Positions 7,513 to 27,550 of a stretch of DNA of 64,000 nucleotides are shown piece by piece. Position numbers and translations under genes: made by a program. The DNA comes from a virus. The notes under the pieces were generated by a model. It was not told the origin of the DNA. It ran no database searches and worked only from the letters and a program-made list of their open reading frames with translations. Position 1 is the stretch's first letter; each line of letters begins with the position of its first letter. The stretch spans positions 32,001-96,000 of IMG/VR virus record IMGVR_UViG_3300004463_001172; one strand, written 5' to 3'.

Positions 7513-7542
7513 ATAACCTCCATATCTATTGGATACCAATAA

Positions 7543-8604
7543 CTAAAATGGACTCGTAGCTATATTATTTACGAGCCGAATGGCATATCCGCCACCCCCG
7601 ACAAACGCTGGGAAGCCTGTTGGTACAGATGAGGTACTTTTCCCAGTAATCGTCGTTTCCACAGGAATGGCCGCTGGCCCGGCAATGGCCGCTGAAGCAG
7701 TTTGCACAAACGCATTTGGAAAGTAGACGTCTAGCCTATACCGCTGACTGGTACCGGGAATCGTCGGCCCGATGGCCCGGAGCCACATTTTCAGCGCCAC
7801 ATTGTTCTGAGCAGATTCGAAGAAGAAGTTCCCTGGAGTGCCGGCGGGCGCGGTCGCATAGCGAGGAAACGTCAAACGCATGGTCGCTTGTGGCGCCCCG
7901 TCGATGATGGGCTCAATCATCTGATCTGAATTATTCATCACCCAATGCTGGGATAACGGACGGTCTGAGGTGAGTTCGGCAGACGATGGTTGATACGAAT
8001 CCGCGATAAACGAGGGGGCTCCCGTCCCTCTCGCTTGGATCGCCATTTTCATTTCGCGCCACAGCACATGCAGTCCTTCCGTGCGGAAGGTGGCCGCCGT
8101 AAGGCTCGTATTCCGTTGACCGGTGGTTTTTGAATCCGTTCCAAACCCACGGGTTTGAATTTCCGTCGGGCGTCCCGCTTGCATCGTGACGGTATACCCC
8201 GAGAGTTTGGCGCTGGGAATTTCGTGGATGCTGACGCCTTTATTCACGGCGAGGGTGGCCATGACGCCGGTAATGTCGGCAGTATAGGTGTATTTATGGG
8301 CGTAGACGCCGGTGGCAATCGCAGAGACTTGCGCAGCGCCTAAGACTTGTGCGAGGACGTATTCAAAGCCGAGATAGCGGAGGTAAGCACGGAAGGCGAC
8401 ATTGACCATGCGATTGCCGTAGATGGGATTTCCCGGCCATGAGCGAGAAACGGAAGCATCATCGATAAATTCTGGGATGGCGACGCCGAAATCCTCAGAG
8501 AGATACTCGATTCCGGCGAGCGGTTTGTTACAAAGAGTCGCAACCCCCCACTGGGTTGCCCGAGCCAACGCCATCTTGGAACCAATACCTGCACCTCTTG
8601 CCAT
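7543..8604 (-). CDS. Major tail (tube) protein
   Basis: 353 aa, beta-rich and T/S/G/A-rich; canonical position between tail terminator and chaperones. Confidence 0.8.
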   Translation of the reverse strand: MARGAGIGSKMALARATQWGVATLCNKPLAGIEYLSEDFGVAIPEFIDDASVSRSWPGNPIYGNRMVNVAFRAYLRYLGFEYVLAQVLGAAQVSAIATGVYAHKYTYTADITGVMATLAVNKGVSIHEIPSAKLSGYTVTMQAGRPTEIQTRGFGTDSKTTGQRNTSLTAATFRTEGLHVLWREMKMAIQARGTGAPSFIADSYQPSSAELTSDRPLSQHWVMNNSDQMIEPIIDGAPQATMRLTFPRYATAPAGTPGNFFFESAQNNVALKMWLRAIGPTIPGTSQRYRLDVYFPNAFVQTASAAIAGPAAIPVETTITGKSTSSVPTGFPAFVGGGGYAIRLVNNIATSPF

Positions 8605-8674: not shown

Positions 8675-8703
8675 TTGACATTCCTCGCATTGTTGTCTAC
8701 AAT
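8675..8703 (+). promoter_or_regulatory. Sigma70-type promoter TTGACA-17-TACAAT, likely leaderless transcript
   Basis: ATG at 8710 lies 6 nt after the -10 box; imperfect inverted repeat 8647-8660 / 8703-8716 brackets the promoter. Confidence 0.75.
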
Positions 8704-8709: not shown

Positions 8710-8892
8710 ATGTCAGCGATACAAAAGCCCTCCAAGAAACTCACGAGTTTCCGATTCAATCCAGATGCTGATGCGTTGTTGGACGCCTTAGCGCAGGATA
8801 TGAACTTACCGCGAGTGTACGTCGTGGAGTTACTCATTAAAGATCGGGCGAAGCGCCGAGGATTATGTCTTCCACCAAAGGAATCACCGTAA
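8710..8892 (+). CDS. Ribbon-helix-helix (CopG-like) DNA-binding protein
   Basis: KKLTSFRFNPDADALLDALAQDMNLPRVYVVELLIK fits the RHH pattern. Confidence 0.7.
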   Translation: MSAIQKPSKKLTSFRFNPDADALLDALAQDMNLPRVYVVELLIKDRAKRRGLCLPPKESP

Positions 8893-9641
8893 TGTCGATT
8901 ATGCGGTTGCCTGTGGAACAGCGATTTTGGTCTAAAGTGAATAAAGAAACCTGTGTCGGTGATGCTTGTGGGTGCCATCAAGGTATCGATCACTGTTGGC
9001 CATGGACCGCTGGTCTGGCTCAAAACGGTTATGGGAAGTTCAAAGTCTGGGTTGACGATCATTGGACTCATGAACTTGCCCATCGAACTTCTTATCGCTT
9101 GACGCATGGGTCTATTCCTGAAGGTCTTTGGGTCTGTCATGCTTGTGATTACAAACCATGCTGTCGTCCATTACATCTTTGGCCTGGCACGGTCGCTGAT
9201 AATACCCGCGATGCCTACAACAAGGGCCGTCTTGATATGGAGGCATTATGGGCTCGTGGCTGTACTCCAGAAGTCTGGGCTCAAATCTCTGGAGAGAAAC
9301 ATTACAACGCGAAGTTGACTGAACCGCAGGTCAGAGAAATTATTGCTCTGACAGGCACTATGAGATGTCGTGATATTGCTGACCGGTATTCTGTCAGCGC
9401 TGCAACTGTGTGCTATATCCAAACCGGAAAGAAATGGAAGCATCTTACTGGCCTCGACCCATTAAATCCTCGAAGAAATCGAGGTACTCCTAAAAAACTC
9501 ACCACCGCTCAGGCGCTCGAAATCATCAAGCTTAAAGGTGTTATGACCTGTAAAGCTGTTGGTGTACGATATGGTGTCAGCCCTTCGACTGTTGCAAATA
9601 TTCAAACTGGAAAAGATTGGAAACATCTCCACGCATCCTAA
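8892..9641 (+). CDS. HNH homing endonuclease with two C-terminal HTH repeats
   Basis: RFWSKV, CWPWT, GYG, AHRTSY, VCHACDYKPCCRPLHL..GT..DN; duplicated KLT..Q..EII...Y.VS..TV..IQTGK.WKHL; antisense to the tail operon. Confidence 0.9.
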   Translation: MSIMRLPVEQRFWSKVNKETCVGDACGCHQGIDHCWPWTAGLAQNGYGKFKVWVDDHWTHELAHRTSYRLTHGSIPEGLWVCHACDYKPCCRPLHLWPGTVADNTRDAYNKGRLDMEALWARGCTPEVWAQISGEKHYNAKLTEPQVREIIALTGTMRCRDIADRYSVSAATVCYIQTGKKWKHLTGLDPLNPRRNRGTPKKLTTAQALEIIKLKGVMTCKAVGVRYGVSPSTVANIQTGKDWKHLHAS

Positions 9642-10434: not shown

Positions 10435-10926
10435 TCACCGATCACTCAACGTTTGCTCGACACGTCGCACCGCCGCTTCAATGAAGCGTGGTCCGACGCG
10501 CTCGGCCATTTCGAGCCCCCGGGTAAACATAAAATGCCCATAGCCGCCGCGTTTACTAATGGCTCGTGCTACTAAGAAGGCGATGCGCATCATGGCCTTT
10601 CCACTGACGCCGAACGTGCGATGCACCCATGATTCAATCGGTGCGCGGGGTGGCCAGTGTGGACGGCTGCCATACTCGACCGGCTCCGCATAGGCGAGCG
10701 GTGAGCCGAGAAGTCCAGTAATCTTCGGCCATTGATCCACGACGCGGCCATACACGCTTGCCCGGAGAATGCCTTGATCCACCGGCGTATACTTCACCAC
10801 CTCGGCTTCGGCCGCCGCCATGGTCAATTCCATTCCAGCAATTAGCGCGGGTTTCAGCTCTTCATCGAAGTGGTACAGCAGCCGCTCGGTCTGCCGATCG
10901 ATCTGAATCGTCACGCTTTGCGTCAT
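10435..10926 (-). CDS. HK97 gp10-family neck/tail completion protein
   Basis: TPVDQGILRASV, YAEPVEYGSRPHWPP, ARAISKRG...MF. Confidence 0.85.
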   Translation of the reverse strand: MTQSVTIQIDRQTERLLYHFDEELKPALIAGMELTMAAAEAEVVKYTPVDQGILRASVYGRVVDQWPKITGLLGSPLAYAEPVEYGSRPHWPPRAPIESWVHRTFGVSGKAMMRIAFLVARAISKRGGYGHFMFTRGLEMAERVGPRFIEAAVRRVEQTLSDR

Positions 10927-10938
10927 GCCGTCGCCCCA

Positions 10939-11312
10939 ATAGGAATCTCTGCCAGCAGGCGCTCTAACTCGGTCTGCGGGAGTGGCAGAATCTGAGTTGC
11001 CATAGGCAGGTCTGGTGACCATTCCTGGACGTTCCTACTCGAAATGTTGTATACTACGTCGTACCTCGAAAAGGGGCTGTGCCCGGTATCAAGAGCATGA
11101 GACATGTGGTGCGGGCACGACCGGAGCTGCCCAGAGCGGATCAACACCGCCATGTATGGCTATCGGCTCAGCGTTAAACGAAGGCGTCGCTACACGCCAA
11201 CCTTTTCGGGGTATCCTCCTATAGAAATCTCTGCTAATAGGCGTTCAAGTTCTGCCTGTGGTAACGGCAGGATCTGTGTTGCCATGGGCAAGTCTGGCGA
11301 CAATTCCTGCAC
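10939..11312 (-). repeat. Diverged ~92-bp direct repeat (10939-11030 and 11221-11312) encoding the glycosyltransferase C-terminus twice
   Basis: VQELSPDLPMATQILPLPQAELERLLAEISI versus VQEWSPDLPMATQILPLPQTELERLLAEIPI. Confidence 0.9.
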
Positions 11313-12491
11313 ACTACCGCTTGCCTGATCATCAGGGCCATTGACTTCGGCCTGCTGTCGCATCTCCGCCACTTGCGCTTCGAGTACCCGACAGGCCGTT
11401 TCAATCTCCGGTGAGGGTCGCCACTGATAAGCCCGTTGCGCATGCACAAAGGCTTTCTCGGGCATCCCTAGCCGGTCATAGAGTAGGGTTAAGCGCCAAT
11501 GCGGCCAGTAGGTATAGATCGGGCCTTGCAGAAAGAGGCTCGAGACCGGCGGCGGCATCTCCCCGGCGATACTGTACCAATGCAGCGCTTCCCCGAGACG
11601 GCCATCGGCTAAGGCACAATCGCCCAGGTGGGCATAGGCTTCGGCCCGCTGCCATTGGCCGGGCTCGCGTAAGGCTTGCCAGACATACTCTTGCGCGTGT
11701 GGAATATCGCCCGCGAGGCACCGGAGGAGCGAGAGATGAATCAAGGCTTGATAGCGCTCCTCTGGCCAGGTCGAGCGTTCAAGGTAGGCGAGATAGGCGG
11801 CTTCGGCGCCGGCGAAATCACCGCTGTCCTGTAATGTATTTCCCTTATAAAACAATGGTCTAGCGTCATTTATGTTGGCATCAGCGGCAGCGGTTAAATT
11901 GGGGATATTCATATCGATCCGCTGTTGCTCACGGAAGGCTCTTTTACGGGGCTTCTGTCGATGATGGACGATGAGTGTATGTACCAGGAGTTGCTTGTCG
12001 GCTGGACATTGCAGGACGTTATGGGAAGCTCCTTCATAACGAATCTTCGGGTCATTCTTGATGAGAAACGCGCGAGGATAAAACATCGCGGGAATCCCAA
12101 ATTCGCACTCGTCCAAATAGACGACACTGTTCACGAGCGCGAACGGTTCATGGGGCTGATCTAGCCAACTTTGGACGATACTTCGGCTTCGAACGTCGAG
12201 AACGTCGTCTCCATCAAGGCTGATAGCCCAGGTCGCATCAGGGAAATGGTCGAGTGCAATGTCTAAAACCGTGTTCCGAGCGAAGGCAAACGAGTTTTCC
12301 CACTGAAAGTAGAAGTAGTAACCGGGTTGGTCTTTGAGGAAATCTCTCACAAGAGTTTCGGTGTTATCCGTGGTGGCGAGGTCAAAGCCAATGCAGTAAT
12401 AGTCAAATAACCCCCACACGCTCGTTAGCGCACGGATAATATTTTCCGATTCGTCGCGTAAGATCATACAGAGCGTTGATTTTACTGGCAT
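11190..12491 (-). CDS. GT2-type glycosyltransferase with C-terminal TPRs
   Basis: LCMILRDE, TTDNT, WENSFAFARN, LDGDD, followed by TPR-like helices; RBS GAGGA before MPVK. Confidence 0.88.
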   Translation of the reverse strand: MPVKSTLCMILRDESENIIRALTSVWGLFDYYCIGFDLATTDNTETLVRDFLKDQPGYYFYFQWENSFAFARNTVLDIALDHFPDATWAISLDGDDVLDVRSRSIVQSWLDQPHEPFALVNSVVYLDECEFGIPAMFYPRAFLIKNDPKIRYEGASHNVLQCPADKQLLVHTLIVHHRQKPRKRAFREQQRIDMNIPNLTAAADANINDARPLFYKGNTLQDSGDFAGAEAAYLAYLERSTWPEERYQALIHLSLLRCLAGDIPHAQEYVWQALREPGQWQRAEAYAHLGDCALADGRLGEALHWYSIAGEMPPPVSSLFLQGPIYTYWPHWRLTLLYDRLGMPEKAFVHAQRAYQWRPSPEIETACRVLEAQVAEMRQQAEVNGPDDQASGSVQELSPDLPMATQILPLPQAELERLLAEISIGGYPEKVGV

Positions 12492-12524
12492 TATTTCCTC
12501 TATTAATCGTTCCCGTCTAAGCCC

Positions 12525-12570
12525 AAAAAGAAAGCGCCGTTCCCCTTGTACAAGGAAGGGCGCTTTCTTA
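12525..12570 (-). terminator. Intrinsic terminator-like hairpin, possibly bidirectional
   Basis: AAGAAAGCGCC...GGCGCTTTCTT stem followed by a U tract on the minus strand. Confidence 0.65.
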
Positions 12571-12650
12571 TGGCTTTCACCCGAGCAGCTCATGACTTCT
12601 GCTCGTTGGGCGCGTCAAATGTCTTACGTCGTTAACTAGGAGAAAGCATC

Positions 12651-13064
12651 ATGTACATACCGAGTGGCGTAGCGATTGAAGATAAGATTGTTGCTCATCT
12701 CTCCTCATTTCGTCAGGAGGTTCAGCTACTCTTCCCCTACGATCTAAGCATTCGTTGTTGTGACCGGATGATTCCGACGAATCATATGTGTGATGAGCGT
12801 TTCCGGTCGATTGAATTAATCGGCCCCCATCAGGTCGCGTATGCCTGGCACGTAATCCCCTATCCACGCCGACCTCGTATCCTCGCTATCCAGTTTTCTA
12901 CGGCGCTGATTGTACATACCGAACTATGGATCACATTAGCGGACCCACGACTCCTCTCCCAGACCCGTGACCTGTTACATCGTCTCCAAGAGATGCTCCA
13001 CATCACAGATGGTAATGATTATGCTCTCCAGTGTCTCTTTCCTGATCCTGCGCTCAACGTGTAA
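12651..13064 (+). CDS. Hypothetical protein, antisense moron
   Basis: AGGAG RBS; fills the gap between minus-strand genes. Confidence 0.6.
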   Translation: MYIPSGVAIEDKIVAHLSSFRQEVQLLFPYDLSIRCCDRMIPTNHMCDERFRSIELIGPHQVAYAWHVIPYPRRPRILAIQFSTALIVHTELWITLADPRLLSQTRDLLHRLQEMLHITDGNDYALQCLFPDPALNV

Positions 13065-13078
13065 ATAACTTTAAGACC

Positions 13079-13315
13079 CTAACACCACATGTCTTCAGGG
13101 GCTGGCGCTTCATGCGCTTCAAAACTCACCCCGACAACAAATTCTTGTGTAGTGCGGTTCCAGGCCGTGGTATGCACGTGCCACCGCGTCTGCTGACAGA
13201 CAATCCGTGCGCCCGGCATATAGGTCTCGTAGAGGGCTAAGCGCTCTTCTGCCGCAAACTCTTGGGTTTCAATCGTGTGACCATTGTCGCGGTTGCGGAT
13301 TGTGAGGTGTGCCAT
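13079..13315 (-). CDS. Hypothetical protein
   Basis: 78-aa ORF with AGGA RBS right after the radical SAM gene. Confidence 0.55.
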   Translation of the reverse strand: MAHLTIRNRDNGHTIETQEFAAEERLALYETYMPGARIVCQQTRWHVHTTAWNRTTQEFVVGVSFEAHEAPAPEDMWC

Positions 13316-13325
13316 CGCATCCTAC

Positions 13326-14435
13326 TTAGACAAAGTTCACGTGGGCCGGCGCCGGGTGAATAGCGTCAACAATCGCCCGATTCTTTTGATTGAACTGGCA
13401 GACCTGACAACTCGTGGCCTTGAAGTCGCCATAGGCGGCGTGTTTTTGCTCGGAATGAAACCAGTCGATGAAGCGCTGGTGCGTAAGGTCGCCGACTTCG
13501 CCATGCTTGGTATAGGCGGTTGAGCAGCACCTATAAATTCGTAAATCTCCACCGATATACATATTGAATTGCTGATACCCGCAGAACTCGTAATCGGGGG
13601 CATGTTGCTGGAGGTCGCGAATCCGGTCGCCAAACATATTCACGAGACGAAAGGTATCATCCTGCAGTGTCATGGCCTTCTCAATCGCTTCGCCAATCAC
13701 GGCAATCATCTCGCCATAGTACGCATCTCCCGCCTGGCTAAACATGGCCGAGAGCCGCACATTATGCGCGCCAGCGTCCTTCATCTGCCGTACTCCGTCG
13801 CACAACTCAGCCCAGTTTTCCAGCGTAATCACGTACCCACAGCCCAGGAGACAGGGACTGTGCGCCAAGTCAATTTGGGTTCGGATCGCCATCACATGGC
13901 GCAAGGCCGTGCTAAAGTATCGTGGGTTGACCTGGCGGATGGCGGCATAGGTCTCGGGGCTTCCCGCATCAATCGAGACGCGAATCCACGCCATTGCGGC
14001 ATAGACCGATTCCCAACCTGGTCGTAAGACCACCCCATTGGTCACAAGCGCTGTTTCCATCCCTAACCGCTGTGCGTTGGTAAAGAGGTGTAAGTGGTCC
14101 GGATGGACGGTCGGCTCCCCACCACCCGTAAATTGGATCGCCTTGACACCCAGTGTGGCGCAATCCTGAAGAATTTCGAGGGCCTTAACCGTCGGAATCA
14201 TCCGGTTCGGATTGACATTGAGCTGGCCATGTTCATAGACGCCAAACTGTTCCGAGGATAGGCCATCTGGACGCCTGTACGCACAGAAACGGCAGCTTTG
14301 CTGGCAAAAATCGCTCAAAATTATTTGACATTGCGTCGGAATGATTTGTTGTCCTTGACGTAATTCAGCAATCTTCTCTATATGCCATAACGCTTTCTCG
14401 CTTGAATAGGCTTGATCGGATCGAGAAATACTCAT
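13326..14435 (-). CDS. Radical SAM / SPASM-twitch domain protein
   Basis: CQQSCRFC, FTGGGEP, LVTNG, RVSIDAG, and C-terminal C...IYRCC...G...CQVC. Confidence 0.92.
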   Translation of the reverse strand: MSISRSDQAYSSEKALWHIEKIAELRQGQQIIPTQCQIILSDFCQQSCRFCAYRRPDGLSSEQFGVYEHGQLNVNPNRMIPTVKALEILQDCATLGVKAIQFTGGGEPTVHPDHLHLFTNAQRLGMETALVTNGVVLRPGWESVYAAMAWIRVSIDAGSPETYAAIRQVNPRYFSTALRHVMAIRTQIDLAHSPCLLGCGYVITLENWAELCDGVRQMKDAGAHNVRLSAMFSQAGDAYYGEMIAVIGEAIEKAMTLQDDTFRLVNMFGDRIRDLQQHAPDYEFCGYQQFNMYIGGDLRIYRCCSTAYTKHGEVGDLTHQRFIDWFHSEQKHAAYGDFKATSCQVCQFNQKNRAIVDAIHPAPAHVNFV

Positions 14436-14448
14436 CTATCCCTCAAAG

Positions 14449-14518
14449 AGGCTAGTCAAGCGGAGCGGTGCTTAGCTGAGTCAAGCCAAGTCGAGCAAAG
14501 CCCAGCATAGCAAAGGAT
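14449..14518. repeat. Pentamer-period array, 14 units, AGY-NN on the plus strand
   Basis: aggct agtca agcgg agcgg tgctt agctg agtca agcca agtcg agcaa agccc agcat agcaa aggat. Confidence 0.85.
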
Positions 14519-14521
14519 ATT

Positions 14522-14560
14522 ACGTATAGGCTGGCAATCGGTATTTGCTAGCCTATACGT
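14522..14560. terminator. Long hairpin abutting the pentamer array
   Basis: ACGTATAGGCTGGCAA...TTGCTAGCCTATACGT inverted repeat. Confidence 0.6.
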
Positions 14561-14561
14561 T

Positions 14562-15143
14562 TCATGTCCTAGTCCAAATAGCATAAAAAGCACCAAACGG
14601 CTCTACCTTTCGCCCATGGTCATCGGTATCATGATATTTTTCACAGCAAAGACATACCCACTTATCACCATTAAAATCATTTGGCTCCCAGCCACTTAGA
14701 TGATTTTGCCAGTGACCTCCGCCCATACCCCACGCATCTGGACGACCATCATAATTCTGTTCATGAAACCCTAATGGTGTAAACACACAAATTTGTTGTC
14801 GTGCCAGGCGTTCGGCTTCACGGAGTAACCGTCGACCCTCGGGTTTCTCTAAATGCTCAATCACATCACCTGCCACGACCGTATCCACCGACTGATCGGG
14901 AAAGATCCGCATCACCTGATCCCATGTTCCATGTAACAACACATGATGTGGGACATCGGGGCAGGCCTCGCGCAGCCGAGCAATATACGGCGCATACGGC
15001 TCAATGCCGATATGGAGTTGACAGCGCACCAGCTGCTGGGGGCGAATGCCAATGCCCACATCAAGCACTACTGGCGCTGGCCGCAACTGCGCTTGCGCCG
15101 CATCTACCAATGCATCTGCCGAATACCAGGTTATGGCCGACAT
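14562..15143 (-). CDS. Class I SAM-dependent methyltransferase
   Basis: VLDVGIGIRPQ motif I; SVDTVVAGDVIEHL; FTPLG. Confidence 0.85.
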   Translation of the reverse strand: MSAITWYSADALVDAAQAQLRPAPVVLDVGIGIRPQQLVRCQLHIGIEPYAPYIARLREACPDVPHHVLLHGTWDQVMRIFPDQSVDTVVAGDVIEHLEKPEGRRLLREAERLARQQICVFTPLGFHEQNYDGRPDAWGMGGGHWQNHLSGWEPNDFNGDKWVCLCCEKYHDTDDHGRKVEPFGAFYAIWTRT

Positions 15144-15730
15144 CTACCTTTCTCTAGATCCACCAGGCACACATGCATCGGGCGGTCCTGCCGTGCGCCG
15201 AGGCGTGAGGTGAGCCCGGTTAGCAACGGCTCTTTGCGTTCACAGGTGGCCCCGAGCCAATCTTCTAAGACCGGAATACTGACCGATGGCCCATACAGCC
15301 GCTCGACATCACACGTGATCATCAGTCGGCCGCCCGGTTCGACTTGCGCCCACAGATGGTTCAACACGGTCGGATGCCATGCGGGTGGAATCTCTTCCAG
15401 GTAACTAATGGCGAGTACCATCGCAAAGGCTTGGTGAAAGGGCTGACGGATGTCATGCTGACGAAAGTTGGGCATCACTGAAAAGGTTGGCGTGGCCTGA
15501 CTATCGCTATGCAGCACTTGCGGTACGAGAGCTTCGATGGCCTCAGCAAAGGGGCGCTGAAAGGCTTCAAAGCCACACCCGGTATTATGGAGGCTGTGAG
15601 GCTTCACCGCTTCAATGACCGCGAGTGCGTAGGGCCACTCATAGGCCCGTGACCAATCCTGCCACTGTGGGTCAAAGAGGTCATCTGAGCGAAGTAATCG
15701 AAAGGCGTGAATCATGGCATCAGTCGGCAT
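15131..15730 (-). CDS. Methyltransferase-like protein
   Basis: WSRAYEWPY, HNTGCG, ISYLEE, PGGRLMITCD. Confidence 0.7.
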   Translation of the reverse strand: MPTDAMIHAFRLLRSDDLFDPQWQDWSRAYEWPYALAVIEAVKPHSLHNTGCGFEAFQRPFAEAIEALVPQVLHSDSQATPTFSVMPNFRQHDIRQPFHQAFAMVLAISYLEEIPPAWHPTVLNHLWAQVEPGGRLMITCDVERLYGPSVSIPVLEDWLGATCERKEPLLTGLTSRLGARQDRPMHVCLVDLEKGRCRP

Positions 15731-16551
15731 TAATCTTCATAGCTCCCCAGCGGTAATTGGCCCCAGCTCTGGTGGTTGCGTACTACATCTTCCGGACGGC
15801 CGTCATAGGTCGCCCCCGCATGGGGCCATGTGCCCGATTTCGTCCAGAGTGGACAGGGACATCCGCGATAACACAGCGGATCGTGTTGGTCGTGGTATTG
15901 ATGGGCTCCCCAGATATCAGGCGCATTGATGGCATAGACACCTTGGGTCTGTAATCTGACCCACGCATCCTCGTCCTCTGGCCAGGGCTCCGTGTAGCTT
16001 TCATCATATCCGCCAATCTCTAGCAGGCGCTGTTTGTGAATCGCAGCGAGCATCGGCACATGCCAGTAGCTGGAATGATGAAAGGGCGAGACAAATAACT
16101 CCTCAATCCGCGAAAAATCCTGCGTCCAGGGAATATGATCCAGGAGCGCTTCCGTCATTGGTGAATGCACCCGGTAGCAATTGGCGAAGATATACGCCTG
16201 CACGTCTGCATCCGCGAGATAACTGGCAAACAGTTCCAAGGCATTCGGCGCGGCCATGACATCAGCCCCCTGAAAGACGAGGATTTCCGCCTGGGCTCGC
16301 TGAATCCCCACGTTCCAGGCTAATGCTGGGTTGCAGTAATAGGGTCGATGGAGATAGATATAGCGCAGCGGGAAGGCATCTGACTTTCGGGCCTCATCCA
16401 CCACACGCTTGGTGTCATCGGTCGAGCCGTCATCGATCACGATGGCCTCAAAACGGCTGTGTGCGTAGGTCTGCACGCTCAGTGACAAGAGATTCCGTCG
16501 TAGGTGCGCCGCCCGATTAAAGCTTGGAATAATGACGGAAAAGTCCGGCAT
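15730..16551 (-). CDS. GT2 family glycosyltransferase
   Basis: SVIIPSFNR, IDDGSTDD, AWNVGI, IGGYDESY...ED. Confidence 0.92.
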   Translation of the reverse strand: MPDFSVIIPSFNRAAHLRRNLLSLSVQTYAHSRFEAIVIDDGSTDDTKRVVDEARKSDAFPLRYIYLHRPYYCNPALAWNVGIQRAQAEILVFQGADVMAAPNALELFASYLADADVQAYIFANCYRVHSPMTEALLDHIPWTQDFSRIEELFVSPFHHSSYWHVPMLAAIHKQRLLEIGGYDESYTEPWPEDEDAWVRLQTQGVYAINAPDIWGAHQYHDQHDPLCYRGCPCPLWTKSGTWPHAGATYDGRPEDVVRNHQSWGQLPLGSYED

Positions 16552-16988
16552 TACGTTGCGTCCTCCCCCTCTGCTTCCGTCGGTGGCTCCGGGATCGGCA
16601 GGGTCATCGGGTCTGCACTATACTGCGCCTGGCGGGAGCGAAAGAGATTACCGACGACGTTTAATTCATCGGTTACTTGATCGGCCTGGGCTTTAACTTG
16701 CTCTCGGTTCGTCTCAAGCCATTCCTGGATTTCCTGCTGCACCAGCTCCGACGGTTCCACCAGCATCTCTGGGTAGCCATCGGCTTCCAGCGCGTCATAG
16801 GCTTGCACCATCGTATCCATTAGGGCTAAGCGCGTGCGATGGCGGCCGATCTGCGCATTCACTGTGGCCTTGGCCTCATCGCTGATATTCATGGTTAAGA
16901 GGCGTTGCAAGCCATTGAGCTGGGCCAGCATCTGCGCCCGGTCCTGCTCGACGTGCTCATAATTACGTGGGTGGCGCTCCTGCTCCAT
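16551..16988 (-). CDS. Acidic coiled-coil hypothetical protein
   Basis: GGAGGAG RBS; stop overlaps the GT2 start. Confidence 0.7.
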   Translation of the reverse strand: MEQERHPRNYEHVEQDRAQMLAQLNGLQRLLTMNISDEAKATVNAQIGRHRTRLALMDTMVQAYDALEADGYPEMLVEPSELVQQEIQEWLETNREQVKAQADQVTDELNVVGNLFRSRQAQYSADPMTLPIPEPPTEAEGEDAT

Positions 16989-17005
16989 CGTGCACTCCTC
17001 CCGGG

Positions 17006-17326
17006 CTAGGTTCGTCGAATGGTGACTAAGGCGCGTTCGCCGATAATGCGTGCCGTATCCTCGCCATACGCGGCTTTGATCCGGCTCAACTCGGCAATCA
17101 CCATGTTGAGCGCTGCGGCCACATCAGCATCCCGGTCAGGGGGTTCTGGCGCGGCTGGGGCGTCTGGTGTCTCAACCGGCCAATCGAGAGTATCTGTGCT
17201 GAGCGTGGCATCAGGCATGGGTTCCCCATGGCCTACGGCGTGAATCGTGGCGAGGTCTGGTGTCACGCCTTCTGACACCTCTGGTTCATCGCCTTTACTG
17301 CGGTCGCGTGATCCGGGGTCTCTCAT
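17006..17326 (-). CDS. Acidic, Pro-rich hypothetical protein
   Basis: GGAGG RBS; ATGA overlap with the radical SAM stop. Confidence 0.65.
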   Translation of the reverse strand: MRDPGSRDRSKGDEPEVSEGVTPDLATIHAVGHGEPMPDATLSTDTLDWPVETPDAPAAPEPPDRDADVAAALNMVIAELSRIKAAYGEDTARIIGERALVTIRRT

Positions 17327-18654
17327 GAATTCACCTCCGTTAAGGTGTTTGGACATTGTACCGATGGCTGCTTTGTGGCATAAAACGCTTCAATCCAGGC
17401 GAGGAGTTCATCGCGGAGGACCAACGTCTCATCGGTCCACCACGGCAACCTCTGATCGCCGCCTTTCCCTTGTACTCCGTTATGGTACAACTGCTCGTAG
17501 TGCGGTACCCAGCCGAGGTCAATAGCACGCTGGTAGATGGGCGTGCCTGGCAGTGGGATGAGGGTAGAAATCTGTGCGGAATCGGGCTGGGCGTCTTCAA
17601 TCCAGCGCCTCGTGGCTTCCATACTCTGCCGATCATCCCCTTCCATGCCAAAGATGAGATAGGCTTTCACGGCAATGCCCACGTCATGGCAGGCCTGCAC
17701 CGCTTTGGTATTCAGCTCAACCGTATTTTTGCTAATGGCGTCGAGGATCCGCTGGTCTCCGCTTTCAAACCCGAACGAAATGCAATCAATTCCCGCCCGT
17801 TTCATCTCAGGTAACAGATCATAGTGCAACACATTCGCTCGCATGTTGACTCGGAAATGATATGACTCTTTAGCCAACACACGGCAAAACTCTTCCACCC
17901 ACGACCGCTTCAAACCCCAGAGATCATCAACCGCGACAAACCGTTTCAATCCATAGGTACATTCCAGGTCTTGTAGTTCTTCAACCACCAAGCGTACAGA
18001 CCGCACGCGAAGCTTCCGGGCCGCGTCCCCCAATGTCCTGACGCAATATGCGCAATTGAACGGACAGCCTCTTGAGCATAACAGTGTGCTACTGAAGCCG
18101 TTTCCAACTGTCAAATTACTGCAATAACTACTGAGATCCACTAAATCTCTGGCCGGCAGCGGTAACACATCAAGGTTCTGCGGTGCCGACGCATGGAACA
18201 CCCCAGGCGACCCGCCTTCCTGAATCCAGCGCGGGAGCACATGATCGGCTTCCCCGACAAACACGGCGTCAAAGCCATCCTGCAGGCATTCATGCGGTAG
18301 TGCACTGGCATGGGGCCCACCAATAATGATTCTCCAATGTGGATTCTTCCATTTAAGAGCTGTCTGAACGTTGATAGCACTGGAATATTGGGCCGAGGTA
18401 CAGGTCAAACCAAATACTGTATTATCTGGCTGCTCTTCAATCCATGCTGGCAACCTGAGATAGCCTTGTCGGACAAAAGCGTCTGGCATGACCCCGAACT
18501 GTCGTGCGAGAAAGTCATCCCCTGTCATATCCCAGAATGCCACATCTCCACCAGAGGCCCGGACTTCCGCCGCGAGCATGAGTAGCCCTAATGGCGGTGC
18601 TCCCTTATCTGAGACCAAGAACGGCGAACATGGGTTAATAAAAATGATGCGCAA
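17323..18654 (-). CDS. Cobalamin-binding (class B-like) radical SAM protein
   Basis: PPLGLLMLAA, IIGGPHAS, VGEAD, LPARDL, SRGCPFNCAYC, GFESG, PLPGTPIY. Confidence 0.93.
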   Translation of the reverse strand: MRIIFINPCSPFLVSDKGAPPLGLLMLAAEVRASGGDVAFWDMTGDDFLARQFGVMPDAFVRQGYLRLPAWIEEQPDNTVFGLTCTSAQYSSAINVQTALKWKNPHWRIIIGGPHASALPHECLQDGFDAVFVGEADHVLPRWIQEGGSPGVFHASAPQNLDVLPLPARDLVDLSSYCSNLTVGNGFSSTLLCSRGCPFNCAYCVRTLGDAARKLRVRSVRLVVEELQDLECTYGLKRFVAVDDLWGLKRSWVEEFCRVLAKESYHFRVNMRANVLHYDLLPEMKRAGIDCISFGFESGDQRILDAISKNTVELNTKAVQACHDVGIAVKAYLIFGMEGDDRQSMEATRRWIEDAQPDSAQISTLIPLPGTPIYQRAIDLGWVPHYEQLYHNGVQGKGGDQRLPWWTDETLVLRDELLAWIEAFYATKQPSVQCPNTLTEVNS

Positions 18655-18674
18655 TGCTTCTTATCCTCGTTTAG

Positions 18675-19589
18675 TCATGCCAGCGCCTTCGCCACGACGT
18701 CGAGGAACGTGGCACATTGGGTTTGGTACTGGTACTGTTGATGCACCAGTCGATACCCTGTATCCGCGAAGTCCTGATATGCATCTGCCGCCAGTCCCAG
18801 AATCGTTTCCATCTGTGTGGCCAAGGCTTCCGGTGTCTCCCCATACGCGACCCCTCGCCCGATGGGGAAGAGTTCCGGCATGCTAATCGGTTCACTCACC
18901 ACCGGCACGCCACACCCCAAGGCTTCGTACAAGCGGGTCTCGGTATTTGGGCTGCTGGAATAGTGGCAATTGAGCACCACCCGACAGCGGTTGAGGTACT
19001 GCACGAGCGCCGCCCCATAACACCGATCAGCAATCGCATCGGGCCAGGCCCACCGAAACCCGCGTGGCAGGCAGGCGAGTGTATCTTGAATCCACTGAAT
19101 CCGCCGCGCGCTGGCATAGCCATACACACCGATATCGATCTCCTTCTCGACCGCGAGTCGCCGATGAACGGTGGCATCGACCCCACTACTCGGACACCAG
19201 GCCACCCGGCGCGCGCCTAATGCTGTCACCGTGGACAGACAGCAGGAGCAATGGTGCACAACGAGATCAAACGCTGCGGCATTGCGGCTTAGCGCATTGG
19301 CTTTGGCGAGCACCACTTCATCCATTGTTGGCCACTCCGGCGACATGACCTCGGCGTGCCAACAAATCGTGGGGGCTCCCGTGGTCTTGCGGAGGTGCTG
19401 AATCGCCACACGGCTCAAGCCATACCCTTGTGATATGACATTCAGGTCTGCCGGTGGCAGTCCAGTGAGGTCTTCATCACGCATATTGGCAAAGGTGACC
19501 TGATGCCCCAAGGTCTCGAAGCCCCGGTGCATCATGGACTCACAGCCCCACGCAAGATTTGCTGCTTTGCCAATCAGGTTGATCTTCAT
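18675..19589 (-). CDS. GT-B glycosyltransferase, CgeB / Glyco_trans_1_2-like
   Basis: YLNRCRVVLN, TRLYEALGCGVPVVSE. Confidence 0.85.
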   Translation of the reverse strand: MKINLIGKAANLAWGCESMMHRGFETLGHQVTFANMRDEDLTGLPPADLNVISQGYGLSRVAIQHLRKTTGAPTICWHAEVMSPEWPTMDEVVLAKANALSRNAAAFDLVVHHCSCCLSTVTALGARRVAWCPSSGVDATVHRRLAVEKEIDIGVYGYASARRIQWIQDTLACLPRGFRWAWPDAIADRCYGAALVQYLNRCRVVLNCHYSSSPNTETRLYEALGCGVPVVSEPISMPELFPIGRGVAYGETPEALATQMETILGLAADAYQDFADTGYRLVHQQYQYQTQCATFLDVVAKALA

Positions 19590-19762
19590 TTCACTCTCTG
19601 TGCCCGTTTGAGCGCAGGCGTTCGCTGGAGTGCTTCAGCCAAATATTCTGCAACAGGATAAAGATCATCTGAATGCAGCAGATAAATTATCTCTGTGTCT
19701 TCATACGCGGGACGTTTATACGCCGGTAAGCAGAGCTTGAGCCATTCATAGAGTGAGTTCAC
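19586..19762 (-). CDS. Small hypothetical protein between two glycosyltransferases
   Basis: GTG-started VNSLYEWLKLCLP...QRVK fills the gap, with ATGA coupling to the next gene. Confidence 0.45.
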   Translation of the reverse strand: MNSLYEWLKLCLPAYKRPAYEDTEIIYLLHSDDLYPVAEYLAEALQRTPALKRAQRVK

Positions 19763-19769
19763 TAAGTCT

Positions 19770-20876
19770 CTATCCAAGTCCAATCCTCTCCAACCCTGTT
19801 GCGAGCCGCTGGGTAAAGCCCTGCCAGTGGAAGTGCGAGGTGGCTCGTCTGAGCGCCTGCAGGGCTTTCTCATGCACGATGTCATCACACGTGGCCTGGG
19901 CTTCTTGCATGGTCTTCCAAAGGATTTCCGGCCGAATGATCGCTTGCTGGTAACAACTGCCATCCGGGTGTGGCTTGGAACCCTCTGGGTCAATCATCCA
20001 CCCGCAGGACGAATCCACCCACTCATTCATCGGTGCAGCATTGAGGGTGATCACGGGTCGGCCATTGACGAGCGCCTCAATAAGGCTCAACCCTAAACCT
20101 TCCATTTTACTCGGCTGTACCACGACACGCCCTAATCCATAGACCCCTCGCGGCGGTGGATAATCCCCTGATTCCCAGACGATATGTGGTGGGAGGGGCT
20201 GCTCCCAGCCAATGATCTTCACCGCCACCTCTTGGGGGAGTTGGCAATGGATCAACACTTCAGGCGGATTCCCCTCCAGCGGTTGACAGGCCAGCGCCGC
20301 GAGCAGCGTATCCAACCCTTTCCTGGCGTCGATGCCAATCCACCCTTGCGAACTGACAAAATCAAACCGCCGGTCCAGGGTCAGCGTTGAGGCCTCGACC
20401 AAGTGCTCATCCGGCACGCCCCAGCCGATATAGTGTGTCTGGGCCTCCTTCCCCCACTCTTGTAAGAGGGTGTACGCTCGTGCCGTGACACAGAGGAGCA
20501 GGTCATTAAAGCGTAGATAGGGCTTCTGGGGGAAGCTCAGGTAATTATCGATTTGTTGAACCGTTTTGATCCCAGCCTTTTGCAACGTCATAGGGAGCTC
20601 GGCTTGCAGCTCTTCGACAAACACCACCGCCTCAAGTCGGTGAAAACTGGCCCATTGCAAGAGCGCCAACGGTGGAATGACCGCATCGGGATAGTCCGTG
20701 CGGTTCGGCCAGTCCCATTCCCCAGTGGTTTCCCGCATGGGCTGCCCGTAAATCATCCCCTGCCGCACAAACATGAAACACTCGTGATGGAGGTCGACAC
20801 AGGCCCGACGTAGTGTCTGGGTAACATAGGGAACCCCACGCGCAAATGAGGTCGTGACAAATCCAAGCCTCGCCAT
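19770..20876 (-). CDS. GT4 family glycosyltransferase
   Basis: RKGLD, PSKMEGLGLSLIEALVNGRPVI (EX7E motif). Confidence 0.92.
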   Translation of the reverse strand: MARLGFVTTSFARGVPYVTQTLRRACVDLHHECFMFVRQGMIYGQPMRETTGEWDWPNRTDYPDAVIPPLALLQWASFHRLEAVVFVEELQAELPMTLQKAGIKTVQQIDNYLSFPQKPYLRFNDLLLCVTARAYTLLQEWGKEAQTHYIGWGVPDEHLVEASTLTLDRRFDFVSSQGWIGIDARKGLDTLLAALACQPLEGNPPEVLIHCQLPQEVAVKIIGWEQPLPPHIVWESGDYPPPRGVYGLGRVVVQPSKMEGLGLSLIEALVNGRPVITLNAAPMNEWVDSSCGWMIDPEGSKPHPDGSCYQQAIIRPEILWKTMQEAQATCDDIVHEKALQALRRATSHFHWQGFTQRLATGLERIGLG

Positions 20877-21209
20877 TTACCAGCGCCTCCGGGTCCAGGG
20901 GTGTGTTTCTTTGAGTCTGTGTATCTCTGCGAGCGCTCGAAAGGGGCAGATATCTGATACCGTATCAGCTGCGATCTGGGCTCCTATGGTATGGACATGC
21001 TGTACTGGCTGTTCATATGTCACTGTATTTCTATTGAAATCATAAGTGGCCGTAATCGGTGGCGGCTCAAGACAGAGATCAAACCCATGTGCAATGTAGA
21101 TCTCTTCATAACAGAGATATTGATCGATGCTATACGGGTGGCCGTAGGGTCGGAGTGAGAGTGTCGCAGATTTCATCACGGGCGCCATTTACCAGCGCCT
21201 CCGGGTCCA
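20871..21209. repeat. Exact 27-bp direct repeat (20871-20897 and 21183-21209) flanking a 103-aa ORF
   Basis: cgccatttaccagcgcctccgggtcca occurs twice. Confidence 0.95.
20877..21188 (-). CDS. Hypothetical protein, moron flanked by direct repeats
   Basis: Ends in HPWTRRRW like the upstream gene; more AT-rich than its neighbours. Confidence 0.6.
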   Translation of the reverse strand: MAPVMKSATLSLRPYGHPYSIDQYLCYEEIYIAHGFDLCLEPPPITATYDFNRNTVTYEQPVQHVHTIGAQIAADTVSDICPFRALAEIHRLKETHPWTRRRW

Positions 21210-21905
21210 TGGATGTAAAAGAAAGCGTTCACCCCACTGATAGGTTTGGCTCGGCACATCGGCGAACACGCCCGCCGCGATCACATCAGCGCCTTGGTCT
21301 TCAGGGCCTAACCCGATCATGAGTCGGTAGCGGCTCCGGTATTCCTTCGCCAGTTCTCGATAGTCGCGCGCTTTACTGGGGGCACTCTGCGAGTCAATGC
21401 TAATCATCGGGTCGCCAGATTGGGTGAAGTAGCCGGCCAGCGCGAGACAGGCATAGGACGCGCCCAGCGTAGCCACGGCCCGATAGATGGGATCTGCAAT
21501 CGTGCCTGTCGTTTCACTAACGACATGTGGTACAGTCCATTCCAGGTTCAGCCGTTGGCTCGTGGCAATGCTGCCGCCTAAGTAGCGAATCTGATAGGTG
21601 GTACTGCTGGTCGGACTACTGATCAGGAGCCAGTCTTCGGCCTCTAAGTAGTGCGGGATGTCTGCTCCGACCGGGTATTCGATCTGGCGCACGCTGGAGA
21701 ACTCATCCACCCAGCCGGTCGGTGTCCCCAGGACGGCGGTGCCACTCCCGGCTAAGGACCGTCGCCGGGTGAGGGGAAACAATCGGCTATGCTCCGCGAC
21801 GGCATTCTGGATGGCTTCTTGACGGGCCTCAATGGTCAGCTTCTGTGCGCTATCCTGAATTAAGGCCGCGAGCACGACTTCATAATCACTGAGGACCTTG
21901 GCCAT
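21189..21905 (-). CDS. Head-tail adaptor/connector protein
   Basis: AVAEHSR..P, IEYPVG, ACLALAGYF, ISIDS; position after the capsid and decoration genes. Confidence 0.7.
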   Translation of the reverse strand: MAKVLSDYEVVLAALIQDSAQKLTIEARQEAIQNAVAEHSRLFPLTRRRSLAGSGTAVLGTPTGWVDEFSSVRQIEYPVGADIPHYLEAEDWLLISSPTSSTTYQIRYLGGSIATSQRLNLEWTVPHVVSETTGTIADPIYRAVATLGASYACLALAGYFTQSGDPMISIDSQSAPSKARDYRELAKEYRSRYRLMIGLGPEDQGADVIAAGVFADVPSQTYQWGERFLLHPWTRRRW

Positions 21906-22261
21906 CAGTAACTACCCTTCCCAACAAAATAGGCGGAAAAATTCAGGTTCGGACTACTCCCAGCCAAGGTATAATTTAGGCGCCCCCATTTACCAAAAGG
22001 GGGTAACGTCAAGACGGCGAGCCCGGTTGCCGTGAGCGCCGCCATGCTTTTGAGGGTCAGGAACGCCCCGCCCGTGCCATAGGTGGCATTGGGGGACCAT
22101 TGCCAGCGCGGCGTCACGGATGCCCCCGTGCCAGATTTGCCCCGCACATAGATCCAGAGTTGTGCTTGGATGTACTCACCCACCGCGATATTCGCGCTGT
22201 TGCCAGAACTCGTGCGCGTGGCTTGACTCAACAGTGGAATACTATCGGCGCGTGAGGACAT
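21905..22261 (-). CDS. Small beta-rich virion protein (putative decoration), S/T/G-rich
   Basis: Similar to 22242-22652 (SP, G..R.NY, F...VGK.Y); position in the head module. Confidence 0.6.
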   Translation of the reverse strand: MSSRADSIPLLSQATRTSSGNSANIAVGEYIQAQLWIYVRGKSGTGASVTPRWQWSPNATYGTGGAFLTLKSMAALTATGLAVLTLPPFGKWGRLNYTLAGSSPNLNFSAYFVGKGSY

Positions 22262-22652
22262 CCCCAGGGTTCTCCGGTCCTACGATATAGGATTTACCCA
22301 CCCATTCCATCCCAAAGGAAAGGCTCCCCTGAATGCGATAGGATACGCGCAGGAACGCCCCGAGATGACTGACGGGGATGCGATAAAATCCGATGTCGGT
22401 CAATGGCACTCCGACGACATGCTCGGCCCACCGCTGCACATCAGGGCTCACTTCCACGATGGGCCAGAGACAGGCGCCCTCGGGCCCGACCCCGTAGACA
22501 TCGAGAAACACGAGTCCTTCCGCCCAGGTGGTGACGTTGCGAGGGCTCGTGCAGCCATCCACTTGGCGCCACGCGAGATCGAGGAGGGTCACTCGTTCAC
22601 AGTGACCCTCCAGTCTCGGAGAGTGTCTGCGCAGCCGCCCCGGCCGATACAT
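22242..22652 (-). CDS. Small beta-rich virion protein, paralog of 21905-22261
   Basis: EVSPD...LGAFLRVSYRI...WVGKSY. Confidence 0.6.
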   Translation of the reverse strand: MYRPGRLRRHSPRLEGHCERVTLLDLAWRQVDGCTSPRNVTTWAEGLVFLDVYGVGPEGACLWPIVEVSPDVQRWAEHVVGVPLTDIGFYRIPVSHLGAFLRVSYRIQGSLSFGMEWVGKSYIVGPENPGDVLTRR

Positions 22653-22655
22653 GCG

Positions 22656-23096
22656 CTAGAGCGTCCAGCCGTGCTGATACATGGCGGCGAACGTCAACCC
22701 AGCGGGGAGACCCGTGGCGAGCCCTGCCGCACTCGTCATCACCCCCACGGTCCACCATGCATTAGCCGGCGCCGTCATGACGCCTGACAGCGTGTAGGCT
22801 TTGGCCTTAGTCGCCCCCGCAGGACAGGTCGCGGCCCCTTTGACGCTGCCATTGACCCAGACGCGCAGGCGCGGGGCATTGAGGGCGCCACCGGCTGTCG
22901 CGGCGTAATGCCGCAGCTGCAAGAGCCGCGATGGCTTCGCCACAAAGAATTTAAGAGCGCGCTCGGTCGCCGTTTGTGCGGCCAGCACCCCAGGTAAAGC
23001 GTTATAGACTTGAAACACATGCGAGGGGGCCCCGGTCGCCCCGGCGGCCATCCCAGGATACCCCGCTACGATTGGCCCAGAGAGATGTGTTGCCAT
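22656..23096 (-). CDS. Putative capsid decoration protein
   Basis: MATHLSGP start; shares KP, RLRVWVN..KG and Y.HG with 23111-23494. Confidence 0.6.
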   Translation of the reverse strand: MATHLSGPIVAGYPGMAAGATGAPSHVFQVYNALPGVLAAQTATERALKFFVAKPSRLLQLRHYAATAGGALNAPRLRVWVNGSVKGAATCPAGATKAKAYTLSGVMTAPANAWWTVGVMTSAAGLATGLPAGLTFAAMYQHGWTL

Positions 23097-23110
23097 CGCG
23101 CCTCCTCCCC

Positions 23111-23494
23111 CTAAGCCTTAAAGCCATGATGATACCGATATTGAAAACGAATCCCCGCCCCTGCGGTGCCAGGGGCTGACGCCACCGACAGCCCTAGCAC
23201 GGAGTTAGCCGGGCCAGTAATGGCAAAGCGATTACCGACGCTGACCGCCCCACCCGCCCCAGGGGTCATGGTAATTTGCCCGGTGCCTTTGCGCACATCG
23301 TTCACCCAGACGCGCAGGCGTGCGGTCTGACCGGCTGGATACGTGGTCGCGCCATAGACCGCCACGCCTACGAGCGTAAAGGGCTTAAACATCAAGATCC
23401 GGGTCGTCGGTTGCTGCACCGTACTGGCCGCCGCCATCGTGGCTAGCGTGCCCCAGGTATCGGCGGTGCGAATCCCTGCAATGTCTTCAAACAT
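23111..23494 (-). CDS. Putative capsid decoration protein
   Basis: AGGAG RBS; paralog of 22656-23096; first sense gene after the capsid. Confidence 0.6.
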   Translation of the reverse strand: MFEDIAGIRTADTWGTLATMAAASTVQQPTTRILMFKPFTLVGVAVYGATTYPAGQTARLRVWVNDVRKGTGQITMTPGAGGAVSVGNRFAITGPANSVLGLSVASAPGTAGAGIRFQYRYHHGFKA

Positions 23495-23559: not shown

Positions 23560-23588
23560 TTGACATTAGCAAATCTTTTAGGTATACT
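23560..23588 (+). promoter_or_regulatory. Sigma70-type promoter TTGACA-17-TATACT
   Basis: Near-consensus boxes upstream of a three-gene antisense cassette. Confidence 0.75.
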
Positions 23589-24380: not shown

Positions 24381-24389
24381 GGGAGCCCC

Positions 24390-27480: not shown

Positions 27481-27550
27481 CCAATGAGATGAGCTGCGGC
27501 ATGATGGCACAAACTGAGACATCTCATGATGAGACCTTACAAGCTAAGAC
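27481..27550. repeat. Degenerate pentamer-period array, 14 units, mostly GAY-NN on the plus strand
   Basis: ccaat gagat gagct gcggc atgat ggcac aaact gagac atctc atgat gagac cttac aagct aagac; preceded by extended -10 TGCTATAAT at 27463-27471. Confidence 0.65.

Follow-up and report, generated by a model that had tools for sequence, protein, structure and literature searches.

To our knowledge, mycobacteriophages are the only phages for which glycosylation of the virion by phage-encoded enzymes has been demonstrated; in them, it shields the particles from antibodies. The peptide glycosyltransferase SunS is encoded on the prophage SPbeta. Cassettes for virion O-glycosylation have been described for the actinobacteriophages Che8, Corndog (Cluster O) and Myrna (Freeman et al. 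2023, as cited in PMC11600133 and PMC12619734). In addition, pelagimyophages carry cassettes of glycosyltransferase (GT) and radical S-adenosylmethionine (SAM) genes in a 'host recognition cluster', for which the authors favour modification of the host surface (PMC7029224), and the cyanomyovirus S-SCSM2R has a GT and radical SAM cassette in ORF302-310 (PMC12801897). Such phage cassettes have been read, without experiments, as modifying host lipopolysaccharide (LPS) or as functioning in 'antibiotic synthesis' (PMC7029224, PMC12801897). Here we describe a cluster of GT, methyltransferase and radical SAM genes in a 64,000-nucleotide stretch of viral DNA (the window), which is bases 32001-96000 of the 109-kb record IMGVR_UViG_3300004463_001172 of IMG/VR, classed as a provirus. 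The record looks phage-like over its entire length, and its source is an uncultured long-tailed phage. We propose, with belief and doubt about evenly balanced, that this block encodes a phage-borne cytoplasmic pathway for protein glycosylation and glycan tailoring that would act on one or more virion proteins.

We found that the region from 11190 to 20876 encodes soluble GT, methyltransferase and radical SAM enzymes (Pfam), all on the minus strand. From the upstream end, these are a GT4-type (GT-B) glycosyltransferase (19770-20876; PF13692, 3.6e-7; PF00534, 1.3e-6), a Glyco_trans_1_2 (CgeB-type) glycosyltransferase (18675-19589; PF13524, 3.7e-15), a radical SAM enzyme with a B12-binding domain (17323-18654), the small acidic proteins p116 (17006-17356) and p145 (16551-16988), a GT2 (GT-A) glycosyltransferase (15730-16551; PF00535, 2.6e-22), a probable methyltransferase, MT2 (15131-15730), a clear one, MT1 (14562-15143), a second radical SAM enzyme (13326-14435), the 78-residue open reading frame (ORF) p78 (13079-13315), and a protein with the SunS/ThuS-like combination of a GT2 (GT-A) domain and tetratricopeptide repeats (GT2-TPR; 11190-12491). 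None of the cluster proteins has a transmembrane-grade segment; the most hydrophobic 19-mer (KD19) scores 1.32. The cluster genes also include none for a flippase, a polymerase or a priming transferase.

An initial annotation, made from the sequence without database searches, had recognized most of this set. Pfam confirms the GT4, the CgeB-like GT, the B12 radical SAM, the GT2, one methyltransferase and the second radical SAM where that annotation had placed them. The two small ORFs it called acidic are so by count (22 Asp plus Glu against 12 Lys plus Arg in p116, and 27 against 12 in p145). Its pair of methyltransferases holds for MT1 (PF08241, 1.1e-6), which also weakly matches the oligosaccharide methyltransferase MftM of NCBIfam. 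MT2 is a probable, divergent class I SAM methyltransferase: searches of Pfam, NCBIfam and PHROG gave no match to a hidden Markov model (HMM), and the assignment comes from protein-language-model look-alikes, with an Atlas feature search at 0.96 to a viral SAM methyltransferase cluster and all ten of the top ten in the Methyltransf_11 clan. The initial annotation did not list p78 or a 103-residue single-gene cassette (p103, 20877-21188) that lies just upstream of the GT4 gene.

We compared the block to the corresponding region in related contigs. These contigs come from alignment-based scans; scans of viral contigs with a single protein (the B12-domain radical SAM or p238) were empty. The upstream flank of the block is p238 (21189-21905), a core structural gene, and the downstream flank is Neck1, a neck or tail-completion gene (10435-10926; phrog_5, 1.7e-8). 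In 11 related IMG/VR contigs (capsid ~35% identical), none of the enzymes is present and the p238 homologue stops ~15 nt before the Neck1 homologue. In the window, 10.3 kb separate the two genes. Because p238 and Neck1 are adjacent in the relatives without the cluster, we conclude that the enzyme block is an insertion. The flanks had originally been described as head-tail adaptor and neck genes. The neck assignment stands, whereas the supposed adaptor has no sequence match in Pfam, PHROG or the PDB and is best described as the core gene that adjoins Neck1 in cluster-less relatives.

The block is conserved in several lineages. Three close relatives (L109, L106 and L189) span all of it, with gene order kept and 55-93% identity; they lack the p103 cassette and a duplicated 3' end of the GT2-TPR gene that we describe below. 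Two groundwater contigs (L108 and L113; capsid 53% identical) have a larger version of the cluster at the same junction. In a third lineage (L019 and L110), the enzymes are split to both sides of p238. The B12-domain radical SAM, GT4, Glyco_trans_1_2, GT2 and GT2-TPR recur at the p238/Neck1 junction in these seven contigs, at 35-89% identity and in clusters of variable composition, and p238 is beside or within the enzyme cluster in L109, L108, L113, L019 and L110. Five contig groups besides that of the window retain the enzymes there. The GT4 is 80% identical in L109 and 35-41% identical in L108, L113 and L019; the corresponding values for the Glyco_trans_1_2 enzyme are 76% and 38-48%. The GT2 is 47-83% identical in L106, L189, L113, L019, L110 and L111, MT2 is 77% identical in L189, and Neck1 is 81% identical to its counterpart in L189. 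The small proteins are also kept in close relatives. p116, which has a middle rich in Pro, Asp and Thr, a C-terminal helix-like segment and no family match, is 55% identical at the same position in L106, with a ratio of nonsynonymous to synonymous substitution (dN/dS) of ~0.16. p145, also without a family match, is 70% identical in L106 and is predicted with low confidence to be a helical hairpin (Atlas model). p78 is 69% identical in L189, where its C-terminal Trp-Cys is kept.

Pairwise dN/dS of the cluster genes is 0.05-0.16, comparable to that of the neighbouring structural genes, and these figures are rough because dS is saturated. The best relative of the B12-domain radical SAM among 185,579 prokaryote species genomes is only 34% identical, and for that reason capture en bloc of a host locus for LPS or exopolysaccharide, which had been considered from the start, does not describe this cluster. 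The sequence comparisons support the view that the block is a unit maintained by phages in the head-tail joining region and no random fragment of a host. The 10-kb block had no megablast match among GenBank phages. In tblastn against 50,697 GenBank phage records, the GT4 and Glyco_trans_1_2 proteins had no match and the GT2 had only generic partial matches (at most 34% identity). The early impression that this combination of enzymes is unlike that of characterized phages is borne out, in that no close counterpart was found in those records.

The GT2-TPR protein gave an indication of the kind of acceptor. Its translation probably starts at the ATG at 12491 rather than at 12593, where the gene had first been drawn. 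Matches of the protein itself to HMMs are limited to sub-threshold TPR models and to the SunS model TIGR04195 (18.5 bits against a cut-off of 350), and it matches phrog_13126 over its full length. The GT2 part of the original GT2-TPR call is confirmed by ten homologues (51-84% identity) that carry PF00535, by an invariant DGDD motif, and by the fold. Those relatives for which DNA was recovered (L189 and L113) belong to this phage group. An AlphaFold2 (AF2) model (mean pLDDT 76.6) matched ThuS/SunS in Foldseek (E 5e-16). In VIA, residues 1-385 aligned to 7MSP, 7MSK and 7MSN with Z scores of 23.5, 21.8 and 21.8, and the best alignment had a root-mean-square deviation of 2.7 over 274 residues. 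Only SunS and ThuS match both domains; the next structures match either the TPR part (Z at most 17.3) or the GT-A part and are 4-6 Z units lower. GT2-TPR is organized like SunS and ThuS (7MSN, 7MSP, 7MSK; TIGR04195): its GT-A domain, which has a DxD motif, is N-terminal, and a helical, TPR-like domain follows at the C terminus. It differs from them in having 14-16% identity and a TIGR04195 score far below the cut-off, in its location in a phage structural operon, and in an extra conserved C-terminal tail, LPMATxILPLPxAELERLL, which follows a disordered linker. The modelled architecture fits peptide and protein glycosyltransferases, in agreement with the function suggested initially, and a protein is the probable acceptor.

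The two radical SAM enzymes point toward sugar chemistry. The enzyme with the B12-binding domain scores above the Pfam cut-off for that domain (PF02310, 48.4 bits against 32.1) and matches the radical SAM domain (PF04055, 64.9 bits). Its CxxxCxxC motif (C197, C201 and C204) is invariant. It has ~20 relatives that are at least 49% identical, and the next step down is at 36%. Among solved structures, its sequence matches only the sugar diol-dehydratase AprD4 (E 2e-19). The NCBIfam models HpnJ, ApyD, AprD4 and PhpK all score below their cut-offs, and HpnJ and ApyD outscore AprD4. A role as a C-methylase, as suggested initially, is not established for this enzyme, whose nearest solved relative by sequence is a dehydratase. 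The second enzyme (PF04055, 6.2e-12) had been called a SPASM radical SAM. The radical SAM part of that name holds. It has no match to the SPASM model PF13186, two of its homologues carry one, and N_Twi_rSAM gives 41.7 bits against a cut-off of 170. We refer to it as twitch/SPASM-like (the twitch radical SAM below) because five C-terminal cysteines are invariant in 27 sequences; C44, C48 and C51 are likewise invariant. Its only sequence matches in the PDB are to BlsE (6e-9) and MoaA, and the top fold matches of its AF2 model (pLDDT 85.8) are SuiB, DesII and BlsE, with SkfB also a neighbour. The best NCBIfam models for the two enzymes were HpnJ, ApyD, a tungsten-cofactor maturase, viperin and BlsE, all far under their cut-offs, and PHROG has no family for either.

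The solved proteins most closely related to the two radical SAMs, AprD4 (PDB 6FD2), BlsE (7VOB) and DesII (8HZV), are all sugar or sugar-nucleotide enzymes, although the homology is distant and the scores against the NCBIfam equivalog models are far below cut-off. The larger clusters in related phages additionally encode an SDR-type epimerase/dehydratase (short-chain dehydrogenase/reductase), a UDP-GlcNAc 2-epimerase, more methyltransferases and a second B12-domain radical SAM. GT2s and distant homologues of the two radical SAMs occur jointly in a single cellular contig (L114), from a metagenome-assembled genome of the Deltaproteobacteria. The genes of this contig for NeuB, a 2-epimerase, a UDP-sugar dehydrogenase and a CMP-sugar cytidylyltransferase identify it as a locus for a glycan with nonulosonic acid (NulO). 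The epimerases for nucleotide sugars in related phages, the NeuB/NeuA locus that is the nearest cellular cluster, and AprD4 and BlsE as the nearest relatives of the radical SAMs together support the view that the cluster is a glycan pathway. Separately, we note that the second B12-binding radical SAM of L113 (14642-17188 of that contig) has an intein (PF14890) within the enzyme.

The twitch radical SAM belongs to a family that extends beyond this phage: over 120 database clusters are at least 49% identical, and 54 IMG/VR loci contain a member. We counted the neighbours of this gene in 47 non-redundant loci, which gave 140 co-directional ORFs. GT2s account for 25 of the 140, many others are methyltransferases, and another five encode additional radical SAMs, four of which have B12 domains. 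A few neighbours are MptE/Maf-like proteins, epimerases, TylF or GT8, and the neighbours also include portal, gp6-like connector and head-completion genes. MT1 homologues adjoin the twitch radical SAM in 12 of the 54 viral loci. In a podovirus genome in GenBank (MW202801.1), the gene order is major capsid protein, radical SAM, GT, dioxygenase, methyltransferase, deacetylase and GT.

From these results we infer an acceptor, a sugar, a linkage, an order of steps and a time of expression for a pathway that acts on virion proteins, as follows. The cluster would be transcribed together with the head-tail joining genes, and nucleotide sugars of the host would supply it. GT2-TPR, like SunS and ThuS, would use its TPR domain to recognize the acceptor, a folded protein or peptide, and would put the first sugar on Ser, Thr or Cys. 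The GT4, Glyco_trans_1_2 and GT2 enzymes would then extend the chain, and the two SAM methyltransferases would O-methylate it. The two radical SAMs could carry out radical chemistry on the sugars (deoxygenation or dehydration, decarboxylation, epimerization or C-methylation), the B12-domain enzyme perhaps in the manner of AprD4 or HpnJ and the twitch enzyme in that of BlsE or DesII. A more specific version is tentative, and on balance we lean against it. It holds that a widespread phage glyco-module (twitch radical SAM, GT2 and methyltransferases), joined here by an AprD4/HpnJ-like B12 radical SAM and a SunS-like GT2-TPR, would make a methylated oligosaccharide edited by radical SAM chemistry (deoxy or C-branched) and S- or O-linked to a virion protein of the neck or head. 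If this version is true, it would be the first known case, in the assembly of virus particles, both of radical SAM chemistry on sugars and of protein glycosylation of the SunS type.

Several findings weigh against a function on the virion. The p238/Neck1 junction is a hot spot for insertions: HNH endonuclease genes and the 103-residue cassette are nearby, and relatives carry peptidases and a nucleotidase there. Since this junction takes up unrelated cargo in relatives, position alone is weak evidence for a role in the virion. The capsid and tube proteins do not have the long Ser/Thr-rich C-terminal tails of glycosylated mycobacteriophages, and no such tail tracks the presence of the cluster. 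The capsid protein ends in ASTSASSLTI and the tube protein in NNIATSPF, and the sequence alone leaves other glycan sites possible. A strong terminator-like hairpin divides the block ahead of the GT2-TPR gene. The fold neighbours of the twitch radical SAM take in the peptide-modifying enzymes SuiB and SkfB beside the sugar-acting DesII and BlsE, and because both kinds match, the fold leaves the substrate class of this enzyme undecided. Lastly, soluble GTs might equally work on lipid-linked intermediates of the host.

This last point leads to the alternative in which the soluble GTs, methyltransferases and radical SAMs alter a surface glycan of the host (O-antigen, capsule, S-layer or flagellin glycan) during infection or lysogeny, thereby blocking superinfection or keeping progeny off debris. 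Action on host lipid-linked intermediates would suit it, and so would the classification of the record as a provirus, the published interpretation of the pelagimyophage and cyanomyophage cassettes (PMC7029224, PMC12801897), and the surface-glycan type of the NulO locus that is the nearest cellular cluster. The N-terminal part of the GT2 also weakly matches PHROGs of GtrB-like O-antigen-conversion proteins, in the category 'moron'. We nevertheless consider host-envelope remodelling unlikely. The cluster lacks membrane proteins as well as a flippase, a polymerase and a priming transferase; it is co-oriented within the head-tail joining genes and was ancestrally coupled to Neck1 by a stop/start overlap; it is away from the integrase-like gene and from the prophage ends; and its GT2-TPR resembles peptide glycosyltransferases and not polysaccharide GT2s. 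Lysogenic conversion of the Gtr type calls for a GtrA flippase, GtrB and GtrC, and with a maximum KD19 of 1.32 the only link of the cluster to that system is the weak GtrB similarity in PHROG.

The architecture of GT2-TPR is also that expected if the product were a glycosylated peptide or small protein separate from the virion (glycocin, mycofactocin type or another ribosomally synthesized and post-translationally modified peptide, RiPP), with p78, p116 or p145 modified by the radical SAMs and glycosylated by the SunS-like enzyme. Conserved small ORFs adjoin both radical SAMs, the fold neighbours of the twitch enzyme include SuiB and SkfB, and there are weak NCBIfam echoes of the trio MftC, MftF and MftM and of RiPP maturases. 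All of these mycofactocin and RiPP scores are far under the cut-offs; the GT2 scores below cut-off against EpsD and MftF. Among the cluster ORFs, Pfam and NCBIfam gave no match to a glycocin precursor, an ABC exporter/peptidase or thiol-disulfide oxidoreductases, and the cluster has no leader-type peptide, peptidase or membrane protein. The clusters of L113 and L019 have neither p116 nor p145, and the additions to related clusters are nucleotide-sugar enzymes, with none for peptide processing. We judge this alternative quite improbable. We had considered p78 as a RiPP precursor and rejected it: only the closest relatives have p78, no p78 homologue is beside the radical SAM at the other 53 loci, and no small ORF recurs after the radical SAM there. 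In a further alternative, the enzymes would glycosylate and edit bases of the phage genome and thus evade restriction; phage GTs are known to hypermodify DNA (bioRxiv 10.1101/2023.12.21.572611; Pyle et al.), and an NT5C-like nucleotidase occurs in one related cluster. This is very unlikely. The block is in the structural operon and outside the replication module, and a SunS-like GT with TPRs suggests a protein partner. The 109-kb record had no match to a ThyA-type hydroxymethylase (PF00303) or a C5-cytosine methylase (PF00145), with positive controls, and none to TET/JBP (PF12851), for which the control was likewise silent. We give least credence to a free glycosylated small molecule, like an aminoglycoside or nucleoside, made during infection and acting on competitors or the host. 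The closest solved relatives of both radical SAMs do come from antibiotic sugar pathways (AprD4 from that of apramycin, BlsE from that of blasticidin S), but the identities are low and the NCBIfam scores below cut-off. We found no cyclitol synthase, aminotransferase, exporter or resistance gene, and such a product would account neither for a glycosyltransferase with TPRs nor for the conserved coupling to Neck1.

Most junctions between the genes are tight. All of the genes are co-oriented, as had been noted at the outset, and the description 'largely translationally coupled' holds in part: at five junctions the genes overlap or adjoin directly, at four they are 10-20 nt apart, and at three the gap is 126, 180 or 587 nt. 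The 126-nt gap between MT1 and the twitch radical SAM (14436-14561; -44.5 kcal/mol, z -3.9) contains a 16-bp hairpin just 3' of the MT1 stop codon (14522-14560, minus strand). The 587-nt gap between p78 and GT2-TPR contains, ~40 nt ahead of the GT2-TPR start, a hairpin and U-run like those of an intrinsic terminator (12520-12569, minus strand). The hairpin (12528-12569) has a 17-bp stem followed by UUUCUUUUU and a fold z of -3.6. This segment is 81% conserved in L189; the gap is otherwise not conserved with L189. A 137-residue ORF on the plus strand inside the gap has no family match.

Both ends of the block have traces of recombination. At the right edge, ~110 nt of the 3' end of the GT2-TPR gene (11190-11300) are copied 267 nt downstream, and the duplicate (10923-11040, minus strand) retains an ATGA stop/start overlap with Neck1. 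In L189 there is no duplicate, and the GT2-TPR stop itself overlaps the Neck1 start. By this sequence comparison, the duplicated end is a recombination footprint at the edge of the cluster and the ATGA overlap is ancestral. At the upstream end, p103 (minus strand) is bounded by 34-nt direct repeats (20871-20904 and 21183-21216). The repeats (family D1) are 94% identical, have a spacing of 312 nt and span a stop/start junction, and both proteins that flank them end in HPWTRRRW. Because the p103 gene is missing from L109, in which p238 abuts the GT4 gene, p103 is a single-gene cassette that was acquired by recombination at the junction.

The structural genes of the window are all on the minus strand. 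They include the large terminase (36998-38575), a ChaB plus protease/scaffold protein (27544-29046), a capsid protein with a long N-terminal extension (25446-27314; PF25209), a series of small unannotated head or connector proteins (21189-23494), the presumed tail tube (7543-8604), the tail assembly chaperone (7087-7539) and the tape measure (3-6758), which continues past the left edge of the window. At more than 2250 residues, the tape measure indicates an unusually long tail. A short ORF like tyrosine recombinases (30475-31101, 208 residues, minus strand; PF00589, 1.7e-7; phrog_216) is located among the head genes, away from any prophage end. The best named match of the capsid protein is from Microcystis phage Mae-JY22 (32%), which is no evidence on the host; the host is probably not an actinobacterium. 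Directly after the capsid gene are two tandem paralogues (22656-23096 and 23111-23494) whose products are rich in Ala, Gly and Thr, nearly without acidic residues, and share an LRVWVN motif. They may be decoration proteins and are candidate acceptors of a glycan.

Two plus-strand genes for HNH homing endonucleases interrupt this operon, one after the capsid gene (24390-25427; NUMOD3 and HNH) and one before the tube gene (8865-9641; HNH_3 and a helix-turn-helix domain). Neither insertion is present in L109 or L189. Promoter-like sites near consensus are upstream of these genes, at 8675-8703 and 23560-23588. A 491-residue ORF on the minus strand (23673-25148) was rejected as spurious; it faces the real HNH/NUMOD3 gene on the opposite strand.

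The cluster and its relatives, from soil, groundwater and many IMG/VR contigs, suggest that environmental phages have far richer kits for tailoring glycans. If the acceptor is a virion protein, the cluster offers a testable route to new sugar chemistry, would help to explain an altered particle surface (adsorption, stability, and evasion of recognition by hosts or predators), and would call for 'LPS-related' and 'antibiotic' auxiliary genes in phage structural modules to be re-read. A compact pathway of soluble enzymes is also a candidate toolbox for glyco-engineering.

Among the systems described so far, the cassettes of the podovirus MW202801.1, of pelagimyophages and of S-SCSM2R likewise combine GT, radical SAM and methyltransferase genes inside structural or fibre modules. 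The present cluster is larger than these, is at the neck junction, and includes a SunS-like enzyme. The cassettes of the Che8/Corndog type share with it phage GTs and an O-methyltransferase that are co-oriented with virion structural genes; here, four GTs and one or two methyltransferases lie between p238 and Neck1, on the minus strand like the genes for capsid, tube and tape measure. They also have in common the product proposed here, virion proteins that carry a glycan. There is no sequence kinship between the two (tblastn against the 50,697 phage records), and the present cluster has in addition two radical SAMs, the SunS-like GT2-TPR and the small acidic ORFs. In our estimate, with about equal chances of being right or wrong, the cluster is best read as a variant, unrelated in sequence, of virion glycosylation of the actinobacteriophage type, to which radical SAM chemistry and a SunS-type transferase have been added.

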